From Erysipelotrichaceae bacterium (GTDB lineage: Bacteria > Bacillota_I > Bacilli_A > Erysipelotrichales > Erysipelotrichaceae): a stretch of DNA of 32,000 nt. The stretch spans positions 347,232-379,231 of the forward strand of contig JBMNIN010000003.1 in the NCBI GenBank assembly GCA_050950925.1, in the 5' to 3' direction. The notes below the pieces were generated by a model. That model ran no database searches. It worked only from the letters and a program-made list of their open reading frames with translations, and was not told where the DNA came from. Below are positions 6,104-19,355 of the stretch, in pieces (positions within the stretch are counted from its first letter, which is position 1; each line of letters begins with the position of its first letter). The position numbers and the translations under genes are program-made.

Positions 6104-7456
6104 TTAAAACTCATTTTTAAAACGTTCTAAGGCTTTAGCTACTCCGTCACTGTTAATGTCATCGGTGATATAATCAGCTTCAGCTTTCAGATTTTCTGAA
6201 CCATTTTCCATAGCAATTCCAATTCTGGCTTTCTGGACCATATCAATATCATTATCAGCATCCCCGAAAGCCATACAGTTATTCCAGGTTAACTCCGATA
6301 TCTTAAGCACTTCTTCAATGCCGGTAGACTTGTTGTATTCAGCATTATAAACCTCATAAGCCTGTGGATAGGCTTTGACAAATTTTACATTACTATATTT
6401 TTTTGAGATTTTCTCAATTACTTTTTCATCACCTATTAAAAAAGCGGCCATAGGTAAACCATGTTTCAAATGGTAGTTTTTTGTTGCTGTATAATCCTTA
6501 ACCAGATACTTTCTTTCTTCATGTTTTAAATATACTGCACAATACTCATCGTGCAGATTATAACTGGCAAGTTCGTCATCATACTTATAGGCCAAGGCAA
6601 CACCATACTTAACACAGTCATCAGTAAGTCTGTTCATATCTTCTAAAGAAATGGTGTGTTTAATAATAGAATTTAAATCCTTATTCAAAATAGACTGGCC
6701 GTTTATCGTTACTAAATAATCAGAATGTAATGAATTAAAGACATCATCCTGAATAAAACATTTAGATCTTCCGGTAGCAATCATCACCTTTATTCCCTTT
6801 TCTTTGCCCTTTTCTATTGCAGCTAAAGCACTTGGAGTAATCTTTGCTGAACCAAAAGGAATTAAAGTCCCATCAATATCAAAGATAATCATTTTTATTT
6901 TATTGTCCTTTTTCGGATTAAACAACACATATTTTTTTGATATTTCTTCTGTCTGATAACTTGTTTTAAAAACTTTTTCTCTTATTTCTTTAAAGCCATT
7001 TTTTTCAATTACTCTTTTTGACCTGTTGTTCCAGATAAAATGGCCACACATTACTAAATCTAATTTTTCAATTTCAAATAAATAATTAATAACTGCCTTT
7101 ACTGCTTCTGGCATGTATCCGTTTCCCCAGTAATCTTTACTTAAGACATAGCCAAATTCTACTCCTGATAGATTTTTATATTCTGGAAATTCCGTTTTAT
7201 TTATAGGTTTCAAACCAAATGATCCTATTACCTTATCATCTAAAACAATCGCAAACTCACTTTTGCTGCCGATAAACATCTTTAAAACTTCTTTTGTTTC
7301 TTCAATGTTTCTATGTGGCATCCAGCCAGCCATCTGGCCGACACCATCTACTTTTGCATACTCGTATACATCGTCTATATCAGTCATCCTGAAGGGTCTC
7401 AAAAATAATCTATCTGTTTTTATCATAATGTTACTGATATCTATTTTTTTATTCAT
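6104..7456 (-). CDS. Fusion protein: GNAT (RimJ/RimL-type) N-acetyltransferase + Cof-type HAD-IIB phosphatase
   Basis: The N-terminal half has LRPFRMTDIDDVYEY and YWGNGYMPEAVKAVINYLF (GNAT motif A region). The C-terminal half has IIFDIDGTL, ATGR and FGDADNDIDM (HAD motifs I-IV, Cof-like cap). I prefer the ATG at 7456 (MNKK), which has a GGAGAGG SD, over the track start at 7468. Confidence 0.8.
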   Translation of the reverse strand: MNKKIDISNIMIKTDRLFLRPFRMTDIDDVYEYAKVDGVGQMAGWMPHRNIEETKEVLKMFIGSKSEFAIVLDDKVIGSFGLKPINKTEFPEYKNLSGVEFGYVLSKDYWGNGYMPEAVKAVINYLFEIEKLDLVMCGHFIWNNRSKRVIEKNGFKEIREKVFKTSYQTEEISKKYVLFNPKKDNKIKMIIFDIDGTLIPFGSAKITPSALAAIEKGKEKGIKVMIATGRSKCFIQDDVFNSLHSDYLVTINGQSILNKDLNSIIKHTISLEDMNRLTDDCVKYGVALAYKYDDELASYNLHDEYCAVYLKHEERKYLVKDYTATKNYHLKHGLPMAAFLIGDEKVIEKISKKYSNVKFVKAYPQAYEVYNAEYNKSTGIEEVLKISELTWNNCMAFGDADNDIDMVQKARIGIAMENGSENLKAEADYITDDINSDGVAKALERFKNEF

Positions 7457-9461
7457 AAGCCTCTCCATTCACTTTAATTTCTGTTATTTGTTTATCTTTA
7501 TAATAAATCATTTCTATTATTTGTTCTTTCATAACAATCGACCATTTGAAACCATTATCATAGTCTTCTCTTTTAAAATCTCCAAACTGAATCAGTTCTC
7601 GATGTTTTTTATAAAATTCAATCTGCTTTTTAACTTCCTGTAATTCACTTTCAGTTAACAGGTTCAAATTAAGTTCATAACCCAGATTCCCAAAACAGGC
7701 AATGTCAAATCTTGTTTTCAGTGGAACCACTCTGCCGGTCTGATGATTTGGGCAGATTGAAACATGACAGGTATAGCTTGATAAAGGATAACCATAACTG
7801 TAACCGTTTTGCATATTAACCCTGACTATTGCATCAGTATTATCCGAAGCCCATATTTGCGGGAAATAACACAGTTTGCCTAAATCAAAACGGTTTCCTC
7901 CGGCAGAACATCCTTCAAACAGAATGTCAGGAAATTCTTCTACTAATGTAGATATTATTTTATAAAAAGAAATATAGTATCGATGCAATGTTTCTTTCTG
8001 TCTATTTTTAAGGAAAGGTGAATAGACATCAGAAAAAATCCGATTAAAATCCCATTTAACATAAATGACATTGCAGCTGTTGAACACTCTTTTTAAACTG
8101 TTCAGGATATAATCTGACACTTCAGGATTGATAATATCCAAAATCCTCTGGTTTCTTCCCTCACTATGATGTTTCCCTTTTATTTCCATTGCCCAATCGG
8201 GATGGGCACGATATAAATCAGAATCAACATTAACCATTTCAGGTTCAACCCATAAACCAAAATGTAAACCCAGTCCGTTTACTTTATCACATAATCCTTT
8301 CAAACCGGAAGGAAGTTTTTCTTTATTTTCATACCAGTCACCTAATGAACGGTAGTCATCTATTCTTTTTCCAAACCAGCCATCATCCATCACAAATAAT
8401 TCAACGCCTGCTTCTTTTCCCTTTTCAGCAAGTGATAAGAGTTTTTCTTCGTCAATATCAAAATAGGCCGCTTCCCAGCTGTTGAGTAAAACCGGTCTGA
8501 TCTTATTTTTATAATTTCCTCTGATAATATGATTATTGACAAAATAATGCATACTTTTACTGATTCCGTTAAAACCACTGTTACTATAAGTCATTACTGC
8601 TTCCGGTGTTTCAAAGGTTTCGTCTGCACTGATTTCAAATTCAAAGTTTTCACTGTTTATTCCCTGAATTATCCTGGTTCTTTTTAGTTGAGTTGTTTCT
8701 ATACTGCTGTAGTGATTCCCGCTATAAACCAGATTAAAACCATAGCACTCACCTTTTGTTTCGTCAGTATCATCTGAACTCAACATGAAAAAAGGGTTAT
8801 TACGGCTGCTGCTGGTACCTGTGTAAGAGGATATAACATATTTACCGGCATTTAACTTTACCTGCTGTTTATTCATTTCATTGGCCCAGTTGCCAAAAAA
8901 TGAAGTGACAGTAAACGTTTTATCCTGCATATCAATTAAAGAACTATATATTTTTTCCAGTTTTACCGTTTTATTAGAAGAATTGATAAATTTACAGCTT
9001 CTGACTATCACATCACTCTGATAAAAAACACTATAAAATAGCTGAAGTTTCAAATTGTAATATTCATCCGCCAGACTAATCACCAGTTGTCCGTCACAAT
9101 CATAACTGGAAGGTAATGTTTCTAATTTTTTCTTTTTATCAACTATCTCATAACTGTCAAAAATAAAGTCAGAAGTATTACTACCATCATGATTTCTTAC
9201 TACGATTAAAGGTTCCCTTATATCTCCTTTTCCATAACTGGAATATTCCAGAGGAATATCTTCCAGAGCATAGGGAAAATCAATACTGTAATTAACCGTA
9301 TTGCCGGTTGTGTTAATTTTCAGTTTGGACTTTTTATAAATTTCATTATCATACTTACTTCCATAATATAAATGAGCCAGATAACCATTGGCCAATATTT
9401 TAAAAATGTAAGTTGTGTTTCTAGTTTCTAAAATAAAATGGTCTTTTACTTTTTTTATCAT
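7449..9461 (-). CDS. Alpha-galactosidase, glycoside hydrolase family 36
   Basis: 670 aa with the motifs FVMDDGWFGKRIDDYRSLGDW, KWDFNR and CSAGGNRFD, which are characteristic of GH36 melibiases. Confidence 0.9.
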   Translation of the reverse strand: MIKKVKDHFILETRNTTYIFKILANGYLAHLYYGSKYDNEIYKKSKLKINTTGNTVNYSIDFPYALEDIPLEYSSYGKGDIREPLIVVRNHDGSNTSDFIFDSYEIVDKKKKLETLPSSYDCDGQLVISLADEYYNLKLQLFYSVFYQSDVIVRSCKFINSSNKTVKLEKIYSSLIDMQDKTFTVTSFFGNWANEMNKQQVKLNAGKYVISSYTGTSSSRNNPFFMLSSDDTDETKGECYGFNLVYSGNHYSSIETTQLKRTRIIQGINSENFEFEISADETFETPEAVMTYSNSGFNGISKSMHYFVNNHIIRGNYKNKIRPVLLNSWEAAYFDIDEEKLLSLAEKGKEAGVELFVMDDGWFGKRIDDYRSLGDWYENKEKLPSGLKGLCDKVNGLGLHFGLWVEPEMVNVDSDLYRAHPDWAMEIKGKHHSEGRNQRILDIINPEVSDYILNSLKRVFNSCNVIYVKWDFNRIFSDVYSPFLKNRQKETLHRYYISFYKIISTLVEEFPDILFEGCSAGGNRFDLGKLCYFPQIWASDNTDAIVRVNMQNGYSYGYPLSSYTCHVSICPNHQTGRVVPLKTRFDIACFGNLGYELNLNLLTESELQEVKKQIEFYKKHRELIQFGDFKREDYDNGFKWSIVMKEQIIEMIYYKDKQITEIKVNGEAYE

Positions 9462-9583
9462 AATAAATTCCTCTATTCTTTATAATTATAGCACAAAAAA
9501 ACGTTCGAATTATTGTATAGGCAATACAGTAATTCAACGTCTTCTTATCCGTAGCAAATAAAGAAAGTTTTCTTATATTCAAT

Positions 9584-9614
9584 CTGATTAGAAACTTTTA
9601 AAAGTTTTAATCAG
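9584..9614 (-). terminator. AT-rich hairpin downstream of the three-gene operon
   Basis: CTGATTAGAAACTTTT pairs with AAAAGTTTTAATCAG (about 15 bp, one bulge), 14 nt after the stop at 9628. The U tract is weak. Confidence 0.4.
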
Positions 9615-9627
9615 TTATAATTGCTAA

Positions 9628-11529
9628 CTATTCAATATTGCTTTTATTCTCTCTTTTAATTATTTCAAATGGTATATAGTCATATTCCAGAACATCAGGT
9701 CTTGTTTTAACAAGTTTTTCCCAATTACATAAACAACTATGTGTTTTCTTAAATTCCTTATCAGTTTTTTCACCATATTTAAAACCATGTGTAAGCATAA
9801 AATAGCACCAGCGTCTATGTTCCATTTTTTGCAATTCTTCCCTGTCTTCAAGAGTATATACACTATTTTCAATCAGCCACTCCCAGGTTCCTTTCGCCAT
9901 AGCCTGGGCTATACTTGATTCTTTATCAAACAGACTGCGTCTATTCCATATATCTTCTATAGTATTTACATTATTCTTTATCTGTTTTCTGTCATCACTG
10001 CATTTATTATTATAACCTGTATACTCATCATATATTTTTTGATATTCAAAATTAAAAATCTTAGATATATTTTCAATTTCCTGATTGACAAGAGCAGCAT
10101 ATGAGAAAGCATCTTCATTGGAAAAAACCACTTTAGCAGAATCAAATAACGGTTTCATCTTTTCCTTTTCTTGAGAATACATCAGTATCGGAATGTCACA
10201 ATATAAAAATTCTGACGAACACATACTTTGTTTTAAACACGATACTATATCGACAACTGCTTTATCCAGAGCGATTGCCACAAAAATATAATTGAAAGGC
10301 ATTTCCCGATGACAATTATCAAAAACTTTATTAAACTCTATATTATTTACGTCCATTTTCCAAAAACGTATAACGAGCTTTCCATCCATTGAAAAAAGCG
10401 GTGTTTCCTTTTTATAATCCGGGTCAAAAGGAAATAAAAGACGATAGCAGTCAACATCCATTTCTTCAGATATTTTTTCTTTAGTATATTTAAGAGCTTC
10501 AAGAGCATCAGAAGCAAAATTTTTCATAAAAGAATTAATTTCATTTTCAATATTTTTATCAAATACGTCAATCAGTATTGTTGAATCGCTGGACAATATC
10601 GAAACATTCAATGCATGAATCAGAGCACTCTGACCGACTTCTCCAAAACCACATATAGCAACATGTATATCTTTTTTAATGTTTGAATCATTCTGATATG
10701 AATTATCCTGTTTAATCATTTCCTCTGCCGCCTTAAACAATCCTTCAACAGCTTTTTTCTTAGGATTGATGATTTTAATATTATTTTTTAATCTGGAAAT
10801 ATTAGCACTTTCATTGGAAATATTATCTGAAATCAATCCTTCAACATAAGGGTTTTTGCATAAAACATATATTTTCTGTTGCGAATTAAATTCTTTTTTT
10901 TCGTAATATTCTGAAATTAAATTCAGATTATAATAATTTACAAGATCATCACTATCACAAAGCAGGATATTCTTATATCTGTTAATATTTAAAATATTTA
11001 TCAGGTCTTTCAGTTTCATATTTTCTCTATTTTGAATTAAACTGATACCGTTTCGATAATACCAGAGTAAAAGTTCATCATCAACAACAGTATCTTCTAC
11101 AACTGTCAATTTACAGTCTTTTACAAGGGCATTGATAAATTTTTTATAATCGCTCCCTTTTCCAATAATAAGGAATTTATTACCTTTAAATCTCTTGCCA
11201 AAACCAATAATCCAGTTATATGGTTTTTTTATTAACATCAGCAAAAATGTTGCGGTAAAAAAAGGAGTAATGAGCAATGATAAAGCGTAAAAATGCGTCA
11301 ATATCTGAATACAGACATTTCCTTCATTCTCTTTCATAAAACCATAGGCAGCATCCAGACTTATTTCAGGATCAAGTTTTATCGCATTTATTATATTCTG
11401 TATGTTCAAATAGATTCTAAAATGGATGTCTTCAACATTGCTGTAATAAATCCACCCCTCCAATGCTAAAACAACAAATATACTAACAGTTACTACTAAA
11501 ATAATAAATTTAAAACCAAATCTTTTCAT
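9628..11529 (-). CDS. Membrane protein: 2 TM helices + two Rossmann/KTN-like modules + C-terminal RyR-like domain
   Basis: TM1 at aa 7-27 and TM2 at about aa 72-100. FLIIGKGSDY (aa 119-128) and VAICGFGEVGQSALIHAL (GxGxxG, aa 294-299). The C-terminus EHRRWCYFMLTHGFKYG...THSCLCNWEKL...EYDYIP matches the RyR-repeat pattern (HERW...GW.YG...HP.LVPW.EL). Confidence 0.6.
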   Translation of the reverse strand: MKRFGFKFIILVVTVSIFVVLALEGWIYYSNVEDIHFRIYLNIQNIINAIKLDPEISLDAAYGFMKENEGNVCIQILTHFYALSLLITPFFTATFLLMLIKKPYNWIIGFGKRFKGNKFLIIGKGSDYKKFINALVKDCKLTVVEDTVVDDELLLWYYRNGISLIQNRENMKLKDLINILNINRYKNILLCDSDDLVNYYNLNLISEYYEKKEFNSQQKIYVLCKNPYVEGLISDNISNESANISRLKNNIKIINPKKKAVEGLFKAAEEMIKQDNSYQNDSNIKKDIHVAICGFGEVGQSALIHALNVSILSSDSTILIDVFDKNIENEINSFMKNFASDALEALKYTKEKISEEMDVDCYRLLFPFDPDYKKETPLFSMDGKLVIRFWKMDVNNIEFNKVFDNCHREMPFNYIFVAIALDKAVVDIVSCLKQSMCSSEFLYCDIPILMYSQEKEKMKPLFDSAKVVFSNEDAFSYAALVNQEIENISKIFNFEYQKIYDEYTGYNNKCSDDRKQIKNNVNTIEDIWNRRSLFDKESSIAQAMAKGTWEWLIENSVYTLEDREELQKMEHRRWCYFMLTHGFKYGEKTDKEFKKTHSCLCNWEKLVKTRPDVLEYDYIPFEIIKRENKSNIE

Positions 11530-11576
11530 CGTTCTTCATTCCTTTTCTGCAAAACATTTAATATAAATCTATTATA

Positions 11577-12473
11577 TTATATAAGCTTGCGAGTACCTTT
11601 TTCTATATAAGCTAAAATGTCAGCACTTCTAATTTTTTGTGAATCTGTCTGTGACAACTCAGATAATGATTCTAAAGACACCCATTTAAATTCAAAAATA
11701 TCTGATTCAGCAGTTACATCATTATTTAACAGTTCACCATTATATAGCATAATAAACTCCTGACGAACCTCACCATCTGAGTAGACAAATCTGATGTCCG
11801 GATTAGTATAAATTCCTATAACATCTCTGACTCTTATATCAAGACCGCTTTTTTCTTTCACTCCCCTTATTGCACATTCGATAATACTTTCACCACATTT
11901 CATTGTGCAACCTGGCAGCATCCATTGGTTTAAGTCTTTGGGTTTTAACATCAGCAATTCATGCTTTGAATTAATAACAGCAATTTCAGTGGCAGGTTTT
12001 ATCGAGTTAGCTTCGGGAGCTTCATTTTGAAAATAGTATTCTTTTTTTAAAACTCTCATTTTTTCTTCCAGCCAGACCAGCTGTTCATCGCTGATTACCA
12101 CTGTTTTTTTATCGTTTATTGAAGGAACTTTTATAAATAAAAGCGTCGTTCCAGCTGCAACTCTCTGGGCATATGAAGTATCAGGTTCTATGGCATAAAA
12201 ATCACCCTTTTTAAACTCATAAATCTCACCAGTTTCAACATTCATGTATTCAGTCCAGCCGCTGATAATATACTGATATTCTGTAGCAACATCATGAACG
12301 TGCGCTGTTTCTGACTGACCGTCTGAATAACTTGAAATTCCAATCTCCAGTCTGTCATCGCGAATAAAAGTAATCTGTTGCGGTCTGGACAGATTTCCGA
12401 CAAAATACTGCCTGGTTGTGCTTTTTAGCACATCCGTAATATCTGAATTTTCGATTCTGATAATTTTTCCCAT
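11577..12473 (-). CDS. Cupin-Nudix fusion protein with a degenerate Nudix box
   Basis: aa 52-72 (GQSETAHVHDVATEYQYIISG) fit cupin motif 1, G(X)5HXH(X)4E(X)6G, exactly. aa 189-211 (CTMKCGESIIECAIRGVKEKSGL) align to the Nudix box GX5EX7REUXEEXGU with G1->C, E16->G and E20->K. An AAGGAG SD lies 17 nt after the upstream stop. Confidence 0.65.
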   Translation of the reverse strand: MGKIIRIENSDITDVLKSTTRQYFVGNLSRPQQITFIRDDRLEIGISSYSDGQSETAHVHDVATEYQYIISGWTEYMNVETGEIYEFKKGDFYAIEPDTSYAQRVAAGTTLLFIKVPSINDKKTVVISDEQLVWLEEKMRVLKKEYYFQNEAPEANSIKPATEIAVINSKHELLMLKPKDLNQWMLPGCTMKCGESIIECAIRGVKEKSGLDIRVRDVIGIYTNPDIRFVYSDGEVRQEFIMLYNGELLNNDVTAESDIFEFKWVSLESLSELSQTDSQKIRSADILAYIEKGTRKLI

Positions 12474-12490
12474 TACTCATTTCTCCTTTT

Positions 12491-15478
12491 CTAAACAAAG
12501 TATAGTTTTAAATAATTGTTTGTACCATTACAAAGTTCTTCTATTGATTCAACACAAGAGCCAAAATGCATTATTTTTGCCCGACTGATTGCTTCACTGC
12601 ATGCCACTGAAATCGGTGCAGTTCCTATTTTGCTTTCACAGGCCCCCAGTAAAGACTGACTCATTATAAGTCCCCAATCTTGTTTAATCTCTTCGTATAT
12701 TGCTCTAGCCCTTGAGGCAAAATCCATGGCCCCCATTACATCATTCAGTTTAAAATGAACATTCGCTATACCTAAATTAGCGTGTGCTATCCATCCCGGA
12801 ATCCCCTTTACAGTAGCATATCTTAGTGCATCAGAATAATATTTCAAAGCTTCGTCTTCTTTAGCATGCATACAGGTATAAATTGTTGCCAGAGTGCACG
12901 TCAGATATGCATCATATCGGGTCTTAATAGGAGCACGATTTTTAATCTCCTCAGGAATCAGTGCTAATGCCATATCGTAATTATTGTTTCTATAATGATA
13001 TTCACATAATTTTCTGATATTTCTTTTTTTGTAATCCATCAGATTATATTGAGATGCATATTCTTCAGAAATCATTAACCACTGTAAAGAATTGTCCCAT
13101 TCGCCAGAAAGAGCATATTTGCCACCAATAAAAAACAGTAATTCATAATAAGGTTTAGGATAGTTTTTACCTATCTTTGCATATAACGAAAGGGCTTCTT
13201 CAATAACCTTATTTACAGGGCGATAAAAAGCGGAGTGATGCAGACATCTTACTTTGAGCATTAATAGAAACTCATTATTATTGATGGTTTCAAAATCATA
13301 CTGTGACAGATAATTATCAATTATATCCACTGCTTCCCTATATCTGCCGGACCGATGCACAATATCAACATATATAGAAAGGGCTTCCTTATCAAAATCA
13401 GTAATCTCATATTTTTCTTTAGCCATCTCAAATATCCATAATAGAAAATCAGTATTTCCTTCTCTTTGAAGTTTGTGTAGAAAATCATTACGTTTTTCAG
13501 ATTCCCAAAATGCCTGAAGCAATTCGGAATTATTCCAATTTATCGGAAATTGTCGCCACACTTTCCAGTACGGGTCTAATTTATCTTTCTTAGAAAGTAG
13601 AAATTCTTCAAGTTCAATATACTTTCCTGACGCAATATAATAGCCGCCAATATGATTTTTAATATAATTTTGAAGTAACATATTATCAACTGCTTCATCA
13701 TTTATCCGAAAGCAATTTTCTATTAATTTTCTGCAGTGACGAGCCAGCTTTAATGCTCCTTTCTGATAATCCACATAAAATTCTCCGCTCTGTTTACTGT
13801 TAGTAAACCAGTCTTTAACAGACTTATGTGAAAAACTCAGCAAAAAAAGCCCTGATTCTTCATAACGATTTACCCAGGAACCAAGCTTGTCCAGATAGAC
13901 AATAAAAGTATACTGATTGTATCCGCAAGCTGTATGAACCAATTCTTCAGGTATAGTATCAGAAATAGATAATAACTCTAAAATCCCTCTCAACTCAACA
14001 AACGACTCTTGAACAGGGAACTTTCTTTCCATTGACTTGCGATAAAAACCTGCTAAACCTTTTGGATAAGAATCAATTTCACTCAATTTGATACTTCCAT
14101 TTTTTATATCTGCAACCAGTAATTCGGCATATAGAAAAATCCCATCACTTAATTCAGATATTTTTGTTATTATTTCGATGAAATTTGATGTCTTATCGTA
14201 TTCATCTTTAAGCGCCTTTGTCAGATAAGCCAGAATGTCATTATAGTTTTCTGGCATATCTTCTATGATATCTATAACATCATAGGTCTGGAAATACTTG
14301 CTGACGTTTTTTTCCTGACGACTTGTAAAAATAAATTTAATCCAGCGAGGTAATCTATCAACACACCTTGCAAAAACACTGGCTAAAGGATTATCTCCAT
14401 CACTTTCCGCTTCATCCAGTCCGTCCACAATTATAATACCTGTTTCGCGATTACCGTCTACAAGGTTTGATAAAGGATACGTCAGAAGAAAATCAAATAG
14501 TGTTTCAGAATTCATTTCATCGAGACTATCTTCCAACTCTAACTGATGTAATAATAATCGTCTGTAATCCTGGATTTTAGTCGCCAGTCTGAAAGCTATA
14601 GTCTTTATCAGACTATTTGGGTTAGTAGTATTTTCCCGATTCCATTCACATAAAAAACAACCATAAACATAATGATTATAATGCGAGAAATTAACACTGA
14701 ATGCACTTTTGCCACTACCTGGACGTCCATACAGCATCAGTGCCTTTGTTGACTTATTTTCATACCAGTTACTGATATAATCTTCCAGCCATCCCCTCTT
14801 CTGAAAATCCTTTGAAAGTAGTTCTCTCTTTTTATTTGAGTCAGGATAAGGAGCAAGTTTTGTTTCCAGAATCTTAATATCACCACTCAATTCATGTGAT
14901 TTTTTTGATTCAATCACCTGACATAATTCAGCAAACTTTTCACTGTACCATTTTTCAAATTCGGTTTCAGAATTTTTTTTGATTTCATACCAGTCGCTCA
15001 TATCAAGCCATTGAATATTCGAAATTGTAATTGGGGGTTTAATTCTATTTTCTGATTCCAAAAGGACTGTTTTGATATTTGCTCCTGCTACACTGACCGC
15101 AATTTTCAATTCATCTAAACATACACCAGGATTTCGTGTTGAATGTTCGGACAAAAATGCAATAATACCTGACACACTCAGAATGCCGTTGAGTATTTCT
15201 TCCCGCCAGTGATTTCCTGCTTTTATTTCACTGGTATCAATCCATATATAATGACCTCTTTTTTCCAGGTCACGCTTTATACGTTCAACAAGCACACTGT
15301 TTCTATCGTGTCCATAACTAAAAAAAAGTTTGAGGCCTCCATCATCATTACAGTTCTGCTTTTTAAAATCCAGAATTTGCTGTTCTGTAAAGGTTCTATC
15401 ACAATCCTCACAAACAAATCTCTTTCCTTTTTTGCTATAATAAACATTTTCAGAGCCACAATGTAGACACTTTTCCAT
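12491..15478 (-). CDS. Zn-ribbon + TIR + STAND (NACHT-like) P-loop NTPase + TPR-like repeat protein (bacterial NLR-like)
   Basis: CxxC...CxxC at C4/C7/C23/C26. TIR_2-type signature LFFSYGHD (aa 51-58) and CLDEL with candidate catalytic E123. Walker A GRPGSGKS (aa 251-258) and Walker B IIIVDGLDEAE (aa 348-358). The helical repeat-rich C-terminus covers about aa 640-995. A GGAGGTG-like SD precedes the start. Confidence 0.8.
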   Translation of the reverse strand: MEKCLHCGSENVYYSKKGKRFVCEDCDRTFTEQQILDFKKQNCNDDGGLKLFFSYGHDRNSVLVERIKRDLEKRGHYIWIDTSEIKAGNHWREEILNGILSVSGIIAFLSEHSTRNPGVCLDELKIAVSVAGANIKTVLLESENRIKPPITISNIQWLDMSDWYEIKKNSETEFEKWYSEKFAELCQVIESKKSHELSGDIKILETKLAPYPDSNKKRELLSKDFQKRGWLEDYISNWYENKSTKALMLYGRPGSGKSAFSVNFSHYNHYVYGCFLCEWNRENTTNPNSLIKTIAFRLATKIQDYRRLLLHQLELEDSLDEMNSETLFDFLLTYPLSNLVDGNRETGIIIVDGLDEAESDGDNPLASVFARCVDRLPRWIKFIFTSRQEKNVSKYFQTYDVIDIIEDMPENYNDILAYLTKALKDEYDKTSNFIEIITKISELSDGIFLYAELLVADIKNGSIKLSEIDSYPKGLAGFYRKSMERKFPVQESFVELRGILELLSISDTIPEELVHTACGYNQYTFIVYLDKLGSWVNRYEESGLFLLSFSHKSVKDWFTNSKQSGEFYVDYQKGALKLARHCRKLIENCFRINDEAVDNMLLQNYIKNHIGGYYIASGKYIELEEFLLSKKDKLDPYWKVWRQFPINWNNSELLQAFWESEKRNDFLHKLQREGNTDFLLWIFEMAKEKYEITDFDKEALSIYVDIVHRSGRYREAVDIIDNYLSQYDFETINNNEFLLMLKVRCLHHSAFYRPVNKVIEEALSLYAKIGKNYPKPYYELLFFIGGKYALSGEWDNSLQWLMISEEYASQYNLMDYKKRNIRKLCEYHYRNNNYDMALALIPEEIKNRAPIKTRYDAYLTCTLATIYTCMHAKEDEALKYYSDALRYATVKGIPGWIAHANLGIANVHFKLNDVMGAMDFASRARAIYEEIKQDWGLIMSQSLLGACESKIGTAPISVACSEAISRAKIMHFGSCVESIEELCNGTNNYLKLYFV

Positions 15479-15653
15479 ACTCCCACCTCAACTGTCATTG
15501 ATTTATATTATTTTATTATTAATTTGCCCGGCATTGTATATTCTTGCTTTTTATTACTACCTAATATTAAGAATTAAACTGATTTTTTAATACACTGACA
15601 GGTAGAATATACATCAAAATGGCCCAAAACAAAGAGTTCTGCAACGGAATTAA

Positions 15654-15682
15654 TTATAAAATACAAAAACATATACGTCAAG
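15654..15682 (-). promoter_or_regulatory. Near-consensus promoter TTGACG-17-TATAAT for the TIR-STAND operon
   Basis: On the minus strand the -35 is plus 15677-15682, the spacer is 17 nt, and the -10 is plus 15654-15659. This implies a 5' leader of about 170 nt before the ATG at 15478. Confidence 0.55.
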
Positions 15683-16270: not shown

Positions 16271-17206
16271 CTATTTACATTCGTTAAGTATTCTTTCAAC
16301 TATCTTATTGGCACTTAAACCGTATTTTTCAAGTAACTGTTCCGGCTTTCCTGATTCTCCAAAAGTATCCTGTGTACCGATAAAAATCTGCTTTCTTGGA
16401 CAGTGTTTAGCTAAACATTCAGCAACTGCACTACCCAAACCACCAATAATATTATGCTCTTCTAAAGAAACAATATATTTTGCATCTTTTGCGTATCTGA
16501 TAATCATTTCTTCATCCAGCGGTTTAATAGTATGTATGTTGATTAAAGTTGGATTAATTCCCTTTTCTTTTAACTTTTCAATCGCCTGTAATGACTGTTG
16601 AACCATCACACCACTGGCAATCATCACAATATCTTTATCTCCTTCATTCATGAGTACTGCTTTACCAATTTCAAACTTATAGTCAGTAGAATTATTGACT
16701 GTTTCTACTGCACTTCTGCACATTCTGACATATACCGGACCCTTATATTCAGTTATTGCTCTGATACACTGCTCTGTTTCAATGCCATCACATGGCTGAA
16801 TTACGGTCATATTGGGAACTGCTCTCATTAATGCCAGATCTTCTAAAGCCTGATGAGTTGCTCCATCCTCTCCAACTGTTAAACCGGCATGAGTGGCACA
16901 GATTTTAACATTCAGATTTCCATAAGCAACTGTATTTCTAATCTGGTCATATGCTCTTCCACTGGCAAAAATAGCAAAAGTTGAACAAAAAGGAATTTTG
17001 CCATTACATGCCAAACCGGCACCAACGCCAATCAGATTACACTCAGCTATACCAACATTAAAATGGCTTTCGGGTGCTACTTTCTTTACTTCTAAAGTCT
17101 TGGTAGAAGCAGAAAGATCAGCATCCAATACTACAATATTTTTATTTTCTAAGGCTAATGCTGCCAGCGTTTTACCATAAGCTTCTCTTGTTGCAATTTT
17201 ACTCAT
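16271..17206 (-). CDS. Transketolase, C-terminal (pyrimidine-binding) subunit
   Basis: 311 aa. TREAYGKTLAALA...VVLDADLSASTKT is typical of the split transketolase B subunit. Its start overlaps the stop of the N-terminal subunit gene by 1 nt. Confidence 0.9.
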   Translation of the reverse strand: MSKIATREAYGKTLAALALENKNIVVLDADLSASTKTLEVKKVAPESHFNVGIAECNLIGVGAGLACNGKIPFCSTFAIFASGRAYDQIRNTVAYGNLNVKICATHAGLTVGEDGATHQALEDLALMRAVPNMTVIQPCDGIETEQCIRAITEYKGPVYVRMCRSAVETVNNSTDYKFEIGKAVLMNEGDKDIVMIASGVMVQQSLQAIEKLKEKGINPTLINIHTIKPLDEEMIIRYAKDAKYIVSLEEHNIIGGLGSAVAECLAKHCPRKQIFIGTQDTFGESGKPEQLLEKYGLSANKIVERILNECK

Positions 17207-18018
17207 CAGTTGTTACCTCCCAAATCTTTTAAAGCAATCGCCAATTCTTCATCAGAAGGAGCCTTACCATGCCAGCCTGCCTGATTTTCCATAAAGCTGA
17301 CACCTTTTCCCTTAACTGTTTCAGCAATTACTACTGTCGGCTGTCCTTTAATGGTTTCAGCATAATTACAGGCAGCAATAACGGATTCAATGTCATGACC
17401 ATCTACAGATATTGTATTCCAGCCAAAAGCTTTAAATTTATCACCGATTGGTCTGATATTCATCACATCTGTGTTATAGCCATCAATCTGTAAACCATTA
17501 TAATCAACTATTAACAACAGATTATCCAGATTATAGTGAGAAGCTGACATTGCCGCTTCCCATATCTGACCTTCCTGCAGTTCCCCATCGCCACAAAGGA
17601 CATAAGTTCTAAAATCATTGCCATCCAGTTTATTTGCTAAAGACATACCGACAGCTACTGATAAACCTTGGCCTAGAGAACCGGTAGAAATATCTACTCC
17701 CGGACAATCCAGCATATTAGGATGTCCCTGTAGTTTTGAGTCAATTGCCCTGAATGTCGGAAGTTGCTCAAACGGGATAAATCCTTTTTCAGCTAATACA
17801 GCATAAAGAGCAGCAGAGGCATGACCTTTAGATAAGACAAATTTATCTCTTACTTTATCATTTAAGTTATCATTATTTATATTCATAACCTCAAAATATA
17901 ATGCTGTTAAAATATCCGCACAACTTAAAGCACCACCCGGATGGCCGCTTTTATTAGCATGAACCATCTTGACAATGTTTATTCGCATATTATTTGCGAT
18001 TCTTTGTAAATTATCCAT
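17206..18018 (-). CDS. Transketolase, N-terminal (TPP-binding) subunit
   Basis: SGHPGGALSCADILTALYF and GDGELQEGQIWEA (TPP motif). I prefer the ATG at 18018 (MDNLQ), which has an AGAGG SD, over the track start at 18051. Confidence 0.9.
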   Translation of the reverse strand: MDNLQRIANNMRINIVKMVHANKSGHPGGALSCADILTALYFEVMNINNDNLNDKVRDKFVLSKGHASAALYAVLAEKGFIPFEQLPTFRAIDSKLQGHPNMLDCPGVDISTGSLGQGLSVAVGMSLANKLDGNDFRTYVLCGDGELQEGQIWEAAMSASHYNLDNLLLIVDYNGLQIDGYNTDVMNIRPIGDKFKAFGWNTISVDGHDIESVIAACNYAETIKGQPTVVIAETVKGKGVSFMENQAGWHGKAPSDEELAIALKDLGGNN

Positions 18019-18062
18019 AAATTTTACCTCTTCTTTATTATATTTTATCATACAATATGTAT

Positions 18063-19355
18063 TTAAATTACTACTTTACCGAATAAATCATGAATATTAA
18101 CACTTTCAATTTTAACACTGACAATTTCTCCTATTTCTATCTCTCTTGAAGAAGTAAATCTGACATGTCCATCAATATCATCCGGAGCATTACAATAACT
18201 TCTTCCCTGATACAGATTCTTGTCAAGAGAATCTCTTCCTTCAACCAGTACTTCCATGATTTTATTAATATATTTTTCATTATTACTTTGGGCAATCTTT
18301 TCCTGGATCAGCATTAGTTCTTCCAGCCTTTGGTCAGCTGTATTTTTATCAACTTTCGGCTCCATCTTATAACTGGCTGTGCCTTCTTCAAGTGAATAAG
18401 TAAAAGCTCCCAGTTTATCCCATTTAATTTCCTTAATAAACTCTATCAGCTCATTGAAATCATCATCAGTTTCTGTTGGAAAGCCGACAATAATTGTAGT
18501 TCTTAAAATCGGGTTTTCAAATCTCTTTCTTATTTTCTCAACTGTTTCTTTTATCTGCTTTTTGCTTCCCCTTCTATTCATAAGTTTCAATATTCTGTCG
18601 CTGCCATGTTGAATTGGAATGTCAAAATAAGGTACTACTTTATCACAGACTGCCATAGCCTGTAGCAGTTCATCATTTATTTCATCAGGATACATATATA
18701 AAACTCTAATCCAGTAAAAATCCATCTTATTCAACTGATAAAGTAAATCAGCCAGACGATATTTACCATATAAATCAATACCATATCGGGTAGTATCCTG
18801 AGCAATCAGATTTATTTCCTTAACTCCTATAGCTTCCAACTCTTTGGCCTGTCTGATTACTTGCTGAAAATCAACAGATTTATATTCTTTTCTAATTAAA
18901 GGAATTGCACAATAGGCGCATTTATTAGAGCAACCATCAGCAATTTTCAAATAAGCACTGTAATTACCGGCAGTCAGGACCATTTCAGGAGTCTCAATCG
19001 TTTTGCTGTTTAAAAAATCATTTAAAATCTTTTCTAAATCATTATATTCATCAATAGAAATAAACAGGTCAACTTCCGGTAGTTCTTTCTCCAGTTCTTT
19101 TCGATACCTCTGAACAAGACAACCCATAACAATCAGATACTTCAGATTATAATCCTTAAAACCTGCCATCTGCAAAATAGTGTCAATTGATTCCTGTTTG
19201 GCAGCATTAATAAAACCGCAGGTATTAATCACAATCGCTTCAGCAACTCTGGGATTTTCAACAAAAGTGTGACCGCCAGCTTTGAGAAGAGACATTGCCT
19301 TTTGGCTGTCTACCAGATTTTTACAGCATCCTAAAGAAATAAATCCTATTTTCAT
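18063..19355 (-). CDS. rimO: Ribosomal protein S12 methylthiotransferase
   Basis: N-terminal MKIGFISLGCCKN UPF0004 domain, radical-SAM CSNKCAYC, and a C-terminal TRAM domain. The 430-aa length fits RimO rather than MiaB. Confidence 0.8.
   Translation of the reverse strand: MKIGFISLGCCKNLVDSQKAMSLLKAGGHTFVENPRVAEAIVINTCGFINAAKQESIDTILQMAGFKDYNLKYLIVMGCLVQRYRKELEKELPEVDLFISIDEYNDLEKILNDFLNSKTIETPEMVLTAGNYSAYLKIADGCSNKCAYCAIPLIRKEYKSVDFQQVIRQAKELEAIGVKEINLIAQDTTRYGIDLYGKYRLADLLYQLNKMDFYWIRVLYMYPDEINDELLQAMAVCDKVVPYFDIPIQHGSDRILKLMNRRGSKKQIKETVEKIRKRFENPILRTTIIVGFPTETDDDFNELIEFIKEIKWDKLGAFTYSLEEGTASYKMEPKVDKNTADQRLEELMLIQEKIAQSNNEKYINKIMEVLVEGRDSLDKNLYQGRSYCNAPDDIDGHVRFTSSREIEIGEIVSVKIESVNIHDLFGKVVI

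Follow-up and report, generated by a model that had tools for sequence, protein, structure and literature searches.

A membrane protein with tandem RCK domains and a RyR repeat as the predicted effector of a Thoeris-like TIR signalling system

A stretch of 32,000 nucleotides (nt) from an Erysipelotrichaceae bacterium (contig JBMNIN010000003.1; the whole stretch is called the window) encodes a protein of 633 amino acids (aa) which joins two transmembrane (TM) helices to two RCK domains, a helical linker and a C-terminal RyR repeat. Relatives of this protein are usually located beside TIR immune genes. This suggests a so far undescribed system of anti-phage signalling, of which the protein is probably the executioner. 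On balance, we favour the view that it acts as the effector in a TIR-based system of abortive infection which resembles Thoeris and in which a signal sensed by the RyR repeat would drive, via the RCK domains, a membrane lesion or an ion leak. A sequence-only reading of the window had proposed a nucleotide-gated, membrane-permeabilising effector. The proposal was supported by the present analysis, and no test run here that could have refuted it went against it.

Positions are coordinates in the window and residues are numbered along the 633-aa protein. The gene and the parts of its product are:

9628..11529, minus strand: effector gene, an open reading frame (ORF) with ATG start, 633 aa; two TM helices, RCK1, RCK2, helical linker, RyR repeat
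11437..11514, minus strand: TM1, residues 6-31, with conserved E24-G25 and Y29 (hydropathy 2.65, model helix, conservation counts)
11317..11436, minus strand: extracytoplasmic or re-entrant loop, residues 32-71 (model, conservation)
11194..11316, minus strand: TM2, one unbroken helix into the cytoplasmic linker, residues 72-112 (model, hydropathy, conservation)
10768..11181, minus strand: RCK1, a KTN-like Rossmann domain, residues 117-254 (Foldseek with GsuK, TrkA and Slo1; profile; conservation)
10120..10668, minus strand: RCK2, a Rossmann domain, residues 288-470, with a beta-hairpin insert at 346-391 (conservation, hhalign, Foldseek)
9904..10119, minus strand: helical linker, residues 471-542 (helical to 554 in the model), with conserved F492, Y496 and W528 (108/115)
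9631..9903, minus strand: single RyR repeat of the R12 type, PF02026, residues 543-633 (563-632 in the model; profiles, conservation)

The protein family is linked to TIR genes

In the window the effector gene closes an operon of three genes on the same strand in the order TIR-STAND, cupin-Nudix and effector, with gaps of 17 and 47 nt. Its partners are:

12491..15478, minus strand: first operon gene, 995 aa; Zn-ribbon, TIR, STAND NTPase and a C-terminus of TPR-like helical repeats (Pfam)
11577..12473, minus strand: middle gene, a cupin and Nudix protein of 298 aa (Pfam NUDIX E = 1.2e-9, Cupin_2 E = 2.6e-5)

Strand and spacing bore out the earlier claim that the effector is the last gene of a TIR operon. 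In the first gene product Pfam identified TIR_2 (E = 6.7e-16) and NPHP3_N (E = 1.1e-18). The TIR domain, at about nt 14969-15331, carries the catalytic E123 in the motif VCLDEL; the Walker A motif GRPGSGKS starts at residue 251, and there is a weak match to Avs1b. Presumably, this TIR-STAND protein is the sensor and signal generator of the operon.

An exhaustive profile search returned about 690 clusters (50% identity) at E <= 1e-3, 111 of them at E <= 1e-30. The family members are mostly full-length with 620-720 aa, and none is named or annotated. A word-indexed search with a profile of 115 sequences gave almost only the known near clade, which shares 29-35% identity with the window protein. 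A distant clade with about 22% identity to the window protein was sampled from metagenomes with an alignment of its own. Loci were collapsed where the family proteins were at least 90% identical, and 44 non-redundant loci resulted. In 21 of these a TIR ORF was located within 3 kb of the family gene; in loci which had at least 2 kb of sequence on both sides the count was 13 of 22. All 26 TIR matches among the 2,476 ORFs of these loci adjoin the family gene, usually abutting or overlapping it on the same strand. The catalytic glutamate is conserved in the partner TIRs, E123 being the counterpart in the window. The sequence-only reading had conceded that homologues residing consistently in non-defence operons would speak against it. 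This is not so, as catalytically competent TIRs are nearby in almost half of the loci.

The TIR partners are of at least six unrelated architectures: TIR-STAND, TIR joined to DUF4357, TIR joined to a beta-propeller, TIR joined to MORN, SIR2 joined to TIR, and TIR proteins of 412-573 aa encoded upstream or downstream. In the near clade we found a downstream 531-567-aa TIR protein (loci L005, L006-8, L011, L018 and L021), an upstream TIR+DUF4357 protein (L010, L022), a 523-aa TIR protein (L025), a 1,074-aa TIR protein (L019) and a TIR-STAND protein as in the window (L009, a second copy of the window locus). In Streptococcus parasanguinis a TIR gene is three genes away from the family gene. Partners in the distant clade are TIR+beta-propeller proteins of 1,135-1,188 aa, a TIR+MORN protein, a SIR2_2+TIR fusion and other TIR proteins. 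TIR pairing is thus common to two clades which share about 22% identity. A conserved effector combined with interchangeable TIR proteins that differ in their sensor domains is the signature of a Thoeris-like pair of signal generator and effector.

In two Eubacterium-type genomes a TIR fragment of 103-108 aa was observed directly upstream of an intact effector gene (L012:5621-5932 and L013:6065-6391). The fragments match the TIRs of L025 and L022 and look like a decayed partner. A decayed TIR at this place argues for a functional pair.

These data bear on an alternative according to which the protein is a housekeeping, nucleotide-regulated cation channel or a transporter regulator of Clostridia, and TIR genes have become its neighbours fortuitously or as hitch-hikers in variable regions. 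In its favour, homeostasis is the usual role of RCK proteins, roughly one locus in two lacks a TIR gene nearby, and the window operon is flanked by housekeeping genes. Yet TIR genes are rare and are nevertheless encountered here at the frequency given above, usually abutting or overlapping on the same strand. Unrelated TIR architectures take part in the pairing, which is seen on both sides of the divide between the two clades, the family is patchy in its occurrence, the GC content of the window operon is low, and the decayed TIR fragments lie next to the gene. We regard the housekeeping alternative as highly improbable.

Several further features of the loci were recorded. In the distant clade the SIR2_2+TIR fusion at L060:3935-5323 is followed by a gene for a 761-aa protein. 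Proteins of 668-687 aa which are 80% identical are encoded directly upstream of two unrelated TIR genes in two different organisms (L019:2613-4676 and L025:4286-6292). They have no Pfam or PADLOC match and may represent either a mobile neighbour or a further, third component. Loci without a TIR gene within 3 kb include L001-L004, L014/L016, L015, L017, L023, L050 and L063. Some of them have unannotated upstream proteins (668, 370, 310 and 485 aa) with no match in Pfam or PADLOC, and in L001 there is an Abi_2 gene some 7 kb upstream. Family members without TIR may act as orphan effectors or depend on a different source of signal. In the distant clade, genes for proteins of 298-299 aa were considered as equivalents of the Nudix gene in the window. 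This was rejected; they are PHP-domain or unannotated genes beside a UvrD/PD-(D/E)XK helicase, i.e. ordinary neighbours.

The RyR repeat and its putative ligand pocket

The sequence-only reading had pointed to a RyR-like segment near the C-terminus, which corresponds to residues 570-620. With the window protein alone the match to Pfam RyR was weak (E = 0.018; 15.7 bits vs a gathering score of 27.4). In a phmmer search of PDB, single bacterial RyR domains were matched at E of about 0.09 and a tandem chimera at 4.7e-5. Pfam RyR was matched by 23 of 74 relatives at E <= 0.01 (best E = 3e-6), and the family profile matched the RyR domains in PDB with E = 2e-13 to 4e-6. The assignment of the repeat is clear at the level of the family and weak for the single sequence.

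Small RyR-domain proteins of phages bind or cleave 2'cADPR and 3'cADPR, isomers of cyclic ADP-ribose (cADPR) (PMC13232231; 10.64898/2026.06.04.730250). In RyDEP the ligand is contacted by H75, W78, H100 and D117; six of eight tested homologues bind signals of the 2'cADPR/3'cADPR type, and two characterised ones do so with nanomolar affinity (PMC13232231). RyR Tad of a Pectobacterium phage binds 3'cADPR, 2'cADPR and cADPR via H129/W132, K147/H154 and K170/D171 (10.64898/2026.06.04.730250). The window protein possesses the putative pocket residues H571, W574, H597 and D617, the latter preceded by Y616. Their spacing is i, i+3, i+26, i+46; in RyDEP and RyR Tad it is i, i+3, i+25, i+42, as it is in a Bacteroides RyR domain aligned to the window protein. 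Among 115 relatives, the set used for all such counts, E570 is conserved in 113, H571 in 112, W574 in 106 and D617 in 111. The stretch E570-H-R-R-W574 is kept in at least 106 of them, and the Y-D pair is almost invariant. The link between RyR repeats and cADPR, previously called debated, now has a direct precedent in phages, and the four residues that contact the ligand there recur in the window protein. By analogy, the RyR repeat is likely the sensor of the effector.

Alternatively, the repeat may act as a glycosidase like RyDEP. The protein would then be a membrane-anchored terminator of the signal or a regulator of immunity and not a killer. In fact, the catalytic dyad of RyDEP, H75/D117, has its counterparts in H571 and D617. 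The same residues, however, are present in non-catalytic sponge homologues, and of the eight phage homologues tested six bound signals and none cleaved them. Furthermore, the two-gene loci offer no other candidate for an effector, and a regulator would not need the conserved 2TM and tandem-RCK body. A glycosidase role is therefore very unlikely in our view.

The tandem RCK body

A first AlphaFold model computed with 18 close sequences was poor (pLDDT 58) and was replaced. With 115 diverse relatives the monomer was predicted with a pLDDT of 91.3 and a pTM of 0.88. The strings FLIIGKGSDY and ICGFGEVGQS, which the earlier reading had singled out as Rossmann-type segments, are residues 119-128 and 292-301, and each opens a beta-alpha-beta Rossmann unit in the model. 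RCK1 has near-invariant residues in G123 and N198; the family does not keep the GxGxxG motif of this domain, and most relatives have G-Y-N. RCK2 displays the signature of a dinucleotide-binding site, G294-x-G296-x-x-G299, with D321/D324 at the end of beta2. G294 is conserved in 115/115 relatives, G299 in 107/115, D321 in 112/115 and D324 in 105/115. The two domains were related to each other by hhalign at E = 5e-5.

In a Foldseek comparison with PDB the top-ranked structures were tandem-RCK proteins: GsuK (E = 1.7e-6), the GsuK RCK domains (2e-5), the TrkA gating ring (8e-5), full-length GsuK with NAD (1e-4), human Slo1/BK (3e-4), KefC (2.5e-3) and MthK (7e-3). Against viral structures Foldseek gave nothing significant. 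At the sequence level the similarity was marginal. Pfam TrkA_N did not match the window protein at E <= 1 and matched 4 of 74 relatives (best E = 6.6e-6); a profile of the N-terminal half was weakly similar to the RCK domain of DMI1 (E = 0.022) and to TrkA (E = 0.76). Together, the model, Foldseek, hhalign and the four TrkA_N matches confirmed the proposed layout of two Rossmann segments of the RCK/KTN type.

At the GxGxxG...D site of RCK2 an adenine dinucleotide, NAD(H) or ADP, is probably bound as a co-ligand. A rival explanation assigns more to this site. The protein would be the same TIR-linked effector, yet its sensor would be the Rossmann site of RCK2 reading a loss of NAD+/NADH, or ADP-ribose (ADPR) produced by a TIR NADase, much as adenine nucleotides are sensed by the KTN/RCK domains of TrkA, KtrA and GsuK. 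The only role left to the RyR repeat would be to dimerise subunits or to clear the signal. The near-invariance of G294/G296/G299 and D321/D324 is in line with this, as are the best structural matches, nucleotide-bound GsuK and TrkA, and the fusion of the window TIR to a STAND NTPase as in NADase effectors of the Avs type. However, the residues of the RyR pocket are equally conserved, and that pocket has an experimental precedent in which TIR signals are bound with nanomolar affinity. A mere dimerisation module would also have no need for the invariant E-H-R-R-W and Y-D. We consider sensing by RCK2 rather unlikely, and favour the RyR repeat as the sensor.

The membrane part

Hydropathy analysis identified two N-terminal segments, residues 5-23 and 72-90, the second reaching to about 100. 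The charges are distributed such that the N-terminal tail has +3/0, the loop three positive and seven negative residues, and the stretch following TM2 +6/0. This fits a topology with the N-terminus inside, the loop outside and the C-terminus inside. Exactly two such hydrophobic segments are present in 80 of the 115 relatives. The two hydrophobic helices around a loop, as read from the sequence before, agree with hydropathy, charge pattern and structure model.

In the model the loop contains two short helices, 35-50 and 58-67. N45 in the first of these is conserved in 110/115 relatives, and the family motif of the loop is LxLQNxIxAFxFxPxI. In TM2, Y81 (110/115), A88-P89 and T92 are near-invariant. 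The near-invariant polar positions N45, Y81, P89, T92 and E24 are beyond the needs of a passive anchor. Possibly, E24-G25, N45 and the loop motif QNxIxAFxFxPxI form a non-canonical pore or filter element.

Proposed mechanism and its weighing

We envisage the following events. The upstream TIR-STAND protein, elsewhere a TIR protein with another sensor, would detect the infection and convert NAD+ to a signal derived from ADP-ribose, a cyclic ADPR isomer being the most likely one. The signal would bind to the C-terminal RyR repeat, whose fold and H/W/H/D residues were observed. Neighbouring subunits would pair via their RyR repeats, as is the case in all solved single-repeat RyR proteins. The change would be passed on by the tandem RCK domains, a fold which was observed here and which forms the gating ring in GsuK, MthK, BK and TrkA; a similar ring and coupling are predicted for the window protein. 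As a consequence, the helix linking TM2 to the RCK body would move and the 2TM part would open a predicted non-selective pore or breach the membrane. The expected defence phenotype is depolarisation of the cell and an arrest of its growth before the phage cycle is completed.

Several observations weigh against this mechanism. Roughly every second family locus is without a TIR gene within 3 kb, and in the inspected flanks of the window operon there is no defence island of which it could be part. The TIR of Avs-type TIR-STAND proteins is usually a terminal NADase and not a maker of signals. In the RyR pocket position 597 is variable, with His in 55 of the 115 relatives, Asn in 34, Thr in 14 and Ser in 9. 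The dinucleotide site of RCK2 is as conserved as the RyR pocket and could therefore be the true signal site. With respect to the pore, no TVGYG-type K+ selectivity filter was found in the loop (no GYG), Ion_trans_2 was matched by none of 74 relatives, and neither the family profile nor that of the N-terminal half matched channel pores in PDB at the sequence level. PADLOC-DB v2 (2023) has no model for the effector and gave only chance-level Csx3 matches (E about 0.01). Because a K+ filter and an Ion_trans_2 match are absent, the term channel is used as an architectural analogy. In its layout the protein corresponds to an RCK-gated channel; any pore would be non-canonical for K+.

A more far-reaching proposal is put forward tentatively. 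The protein might be a bacterial channel gated by a cyclic ADPR isomer, with a RyR Repeat12-type sensor and a tandem-RCK ring as transducer. As such it could be the first host-side RyR receptor in TIR immunity, a likely source of the phage RyR sponges and glycosidases, and the prokaryotic counterpart of the debated cADPR control of eukaryotic ryanodine receptors.

If the proposed TIR signalling system with its 2TM, tandem-RCK and RyR effector exists, several consequences follow. A RyR repeat on an RCK channel-like body would constitute a new class of effector and sensor in TIR/Thoeris immunity. This class would be common in Clostridia of gut and rumen, bacteria which the systems tested so far barely cover. 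The phage RyR sponges and glycosidases would be copies of a host receptor, similar to other sponge families. The system would also provide a simple bacterial test bed for asking whether ligands of the cADPR type act on channel gating through RyR Repeat12 domains, an old question in the case of animal ryanodine receptors. Finally, the window version suggests that sensing as in Avs can be coupled to signalling as in Thoeris, with a TIR-STAND protein feeding a separate, signal-gated effector and a Nudix-type modulator alongside.

The window operon and its middle gene

An AGGA-type ribosome-binding site is located about 10 nt upstream of the effector ORF. Upstream of the operon the best promoter candidate is:

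15653..15681, minus strand: promoter-like site, TTGACG-17-TATAAT, 11/12, a consensus match only

It is about 175 nt upstream of the TIR gene and follows a terminator-like hairpin of the preceding transketolase gene. The flanks (genes at 16271-19355 and 6104-9461) have housekeeping functions, i.e. transketolase, a MiaB-like radical SAM enzyme, RsmF and alpha-galactosidase, and the operon sits between the transketolase/MiaB-like genes and the alpha-galactosidase gene. GC content in the operon region (9000-12500) is 28-31% vs 33-38% nearby. Because of the low GC content and the housekeeping flanks the operon looks like an isolated insertion and not like a part of a defence island.

In the cupin-Nudix protein the Nudix box (about residues 185-210) is degenerate when compared with the Nudix proteins in PDB: LPGCTMKCGESIIECAIRGVKEKSGL. 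RE is changed to RG, EE to EK and the first Gly to Cys. These changes point to a role in binding or buffering ADPR-type molecules rather than in efficient hydrolysis. Judging from these replacements, the protein is probably a weak hydrolase or none. In analogy to NUDT9H of TRPM2 or to NrtR it may bind ADPR-type ligands; by buffering or binding such molecules it probably sets a threshold. A Nudix gene was present in none of the loci of relatives with annotated neighbours and is specific to the window version.

Comparison with known systems

With Thoeris (types I-XI) the system shares a catalytically competent TIR gene beside the gene for a protein in which a nucleotide-binding domain is combined with a module that is toxic or acts at the membrane, and it shares swappable TIR partners. 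The known Thoeris sensors are SLOG, Macro, DUF6650 and SLATT, whereas here a RyR repeat resides on a body of 2TM and tandem RCK. Instead of the small ThsB the window has a TIR-STAND protein and a Nudix gene. STAND proteins of the Avs/bNACHT type with an N-terminal TIR resemble the first gene product in having a TIR, a P-loop STAND NTPase and a helical-repeat C-terminus. Avs proteins act alone, however, whereas the window TIR-STAND is co-transcribed with the genes of the Nudix protein and the effector, and relatives of this effector have many other TIR proteins as partners.

The likeness to GsuK, MthK, BK (Slo1) and TrkA consists in two TM helices, a continuous helix and tandem RCK domains. With GsuK and TrkA a GxGxxG...D nucleotide site is shared, which in those proteins binds NAD+/ADP. 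The loop is different, as two short helices replace the pore helix and filter of GsuK, MthK and BK. Compared with the RCK-gated K+ proteins there is an additional C-terminal RyR repeat, sequence similarity is marginal (E = 0.02-1), and the genes nearby are TIR genes and not those of K+ homeostasis.

RyDEP and RyR Tad share with the window protein PF02026, a single repeat which is expected to dimerise, and the same four ligand residues at nearly the same spacing. They are small soluble anti-defence proteins of phages, however, whereas the window protein is encoded by the host, fused to membrane and RCK domains, TIR-linked and on the side of defence. Eukaryotic ryanodine receptors likewise have a RyR-type nucleotide-binding repeat on a channel-like protein, and a ligand of the ADPR family is expected. 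Ryanodine receptors and TRPM2 have 6TM rather than 2TM and differ entirely in size; the window protein has one RyR repeat rather than tandem repeats. The ADPR-gated TRPM2 with its NUDT9H domain is similar in that a catalytically weakened Nudix module is part of the pathway; here the Nudix module is a separate protein.

The RyDEP and RyR Tad preprints and a Thoeris survey (10.64898/2025.12.03.692087) contain no mention of a host RyR-domain effector. RyR or TrkA was not found in the survey's text or in the listed parts of its tables; its 18 untested effector types, shown in a figure, may include the family. The C. aminophilum TIR was not found among the listed rows of its Table S1. A search of the literature for Thoeris linked with RyR, TrkA or RCK revealed nothing further.

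According to that survey, membrane effectors are present in Thoeris types II (TM-Macro), VII (SLATT) and X (ThsK), and the type X system, with ThsK as an "ion channel" effector, was validated (10.64898/2025.12.03.692087). Identity of the window protein with ThsK was considered and rejected. ThsK has 229 aa, and hhalign gave a probability of 0.6% for similarity to the family. In addition, its partner is a ThsB_TIR (PF08937) and the partners of the window family are TIR_2. Plasmid matches to the type X/II TIR cluster were Macro-domain systems and uninformative. ThsK of a Bacillus strain (L030:3298-3987; traced via the TIR of its system), a membrane protein with no Pfam match, is encoded in an element with FtsK/SpoIIIE and Replic_Relax genes.

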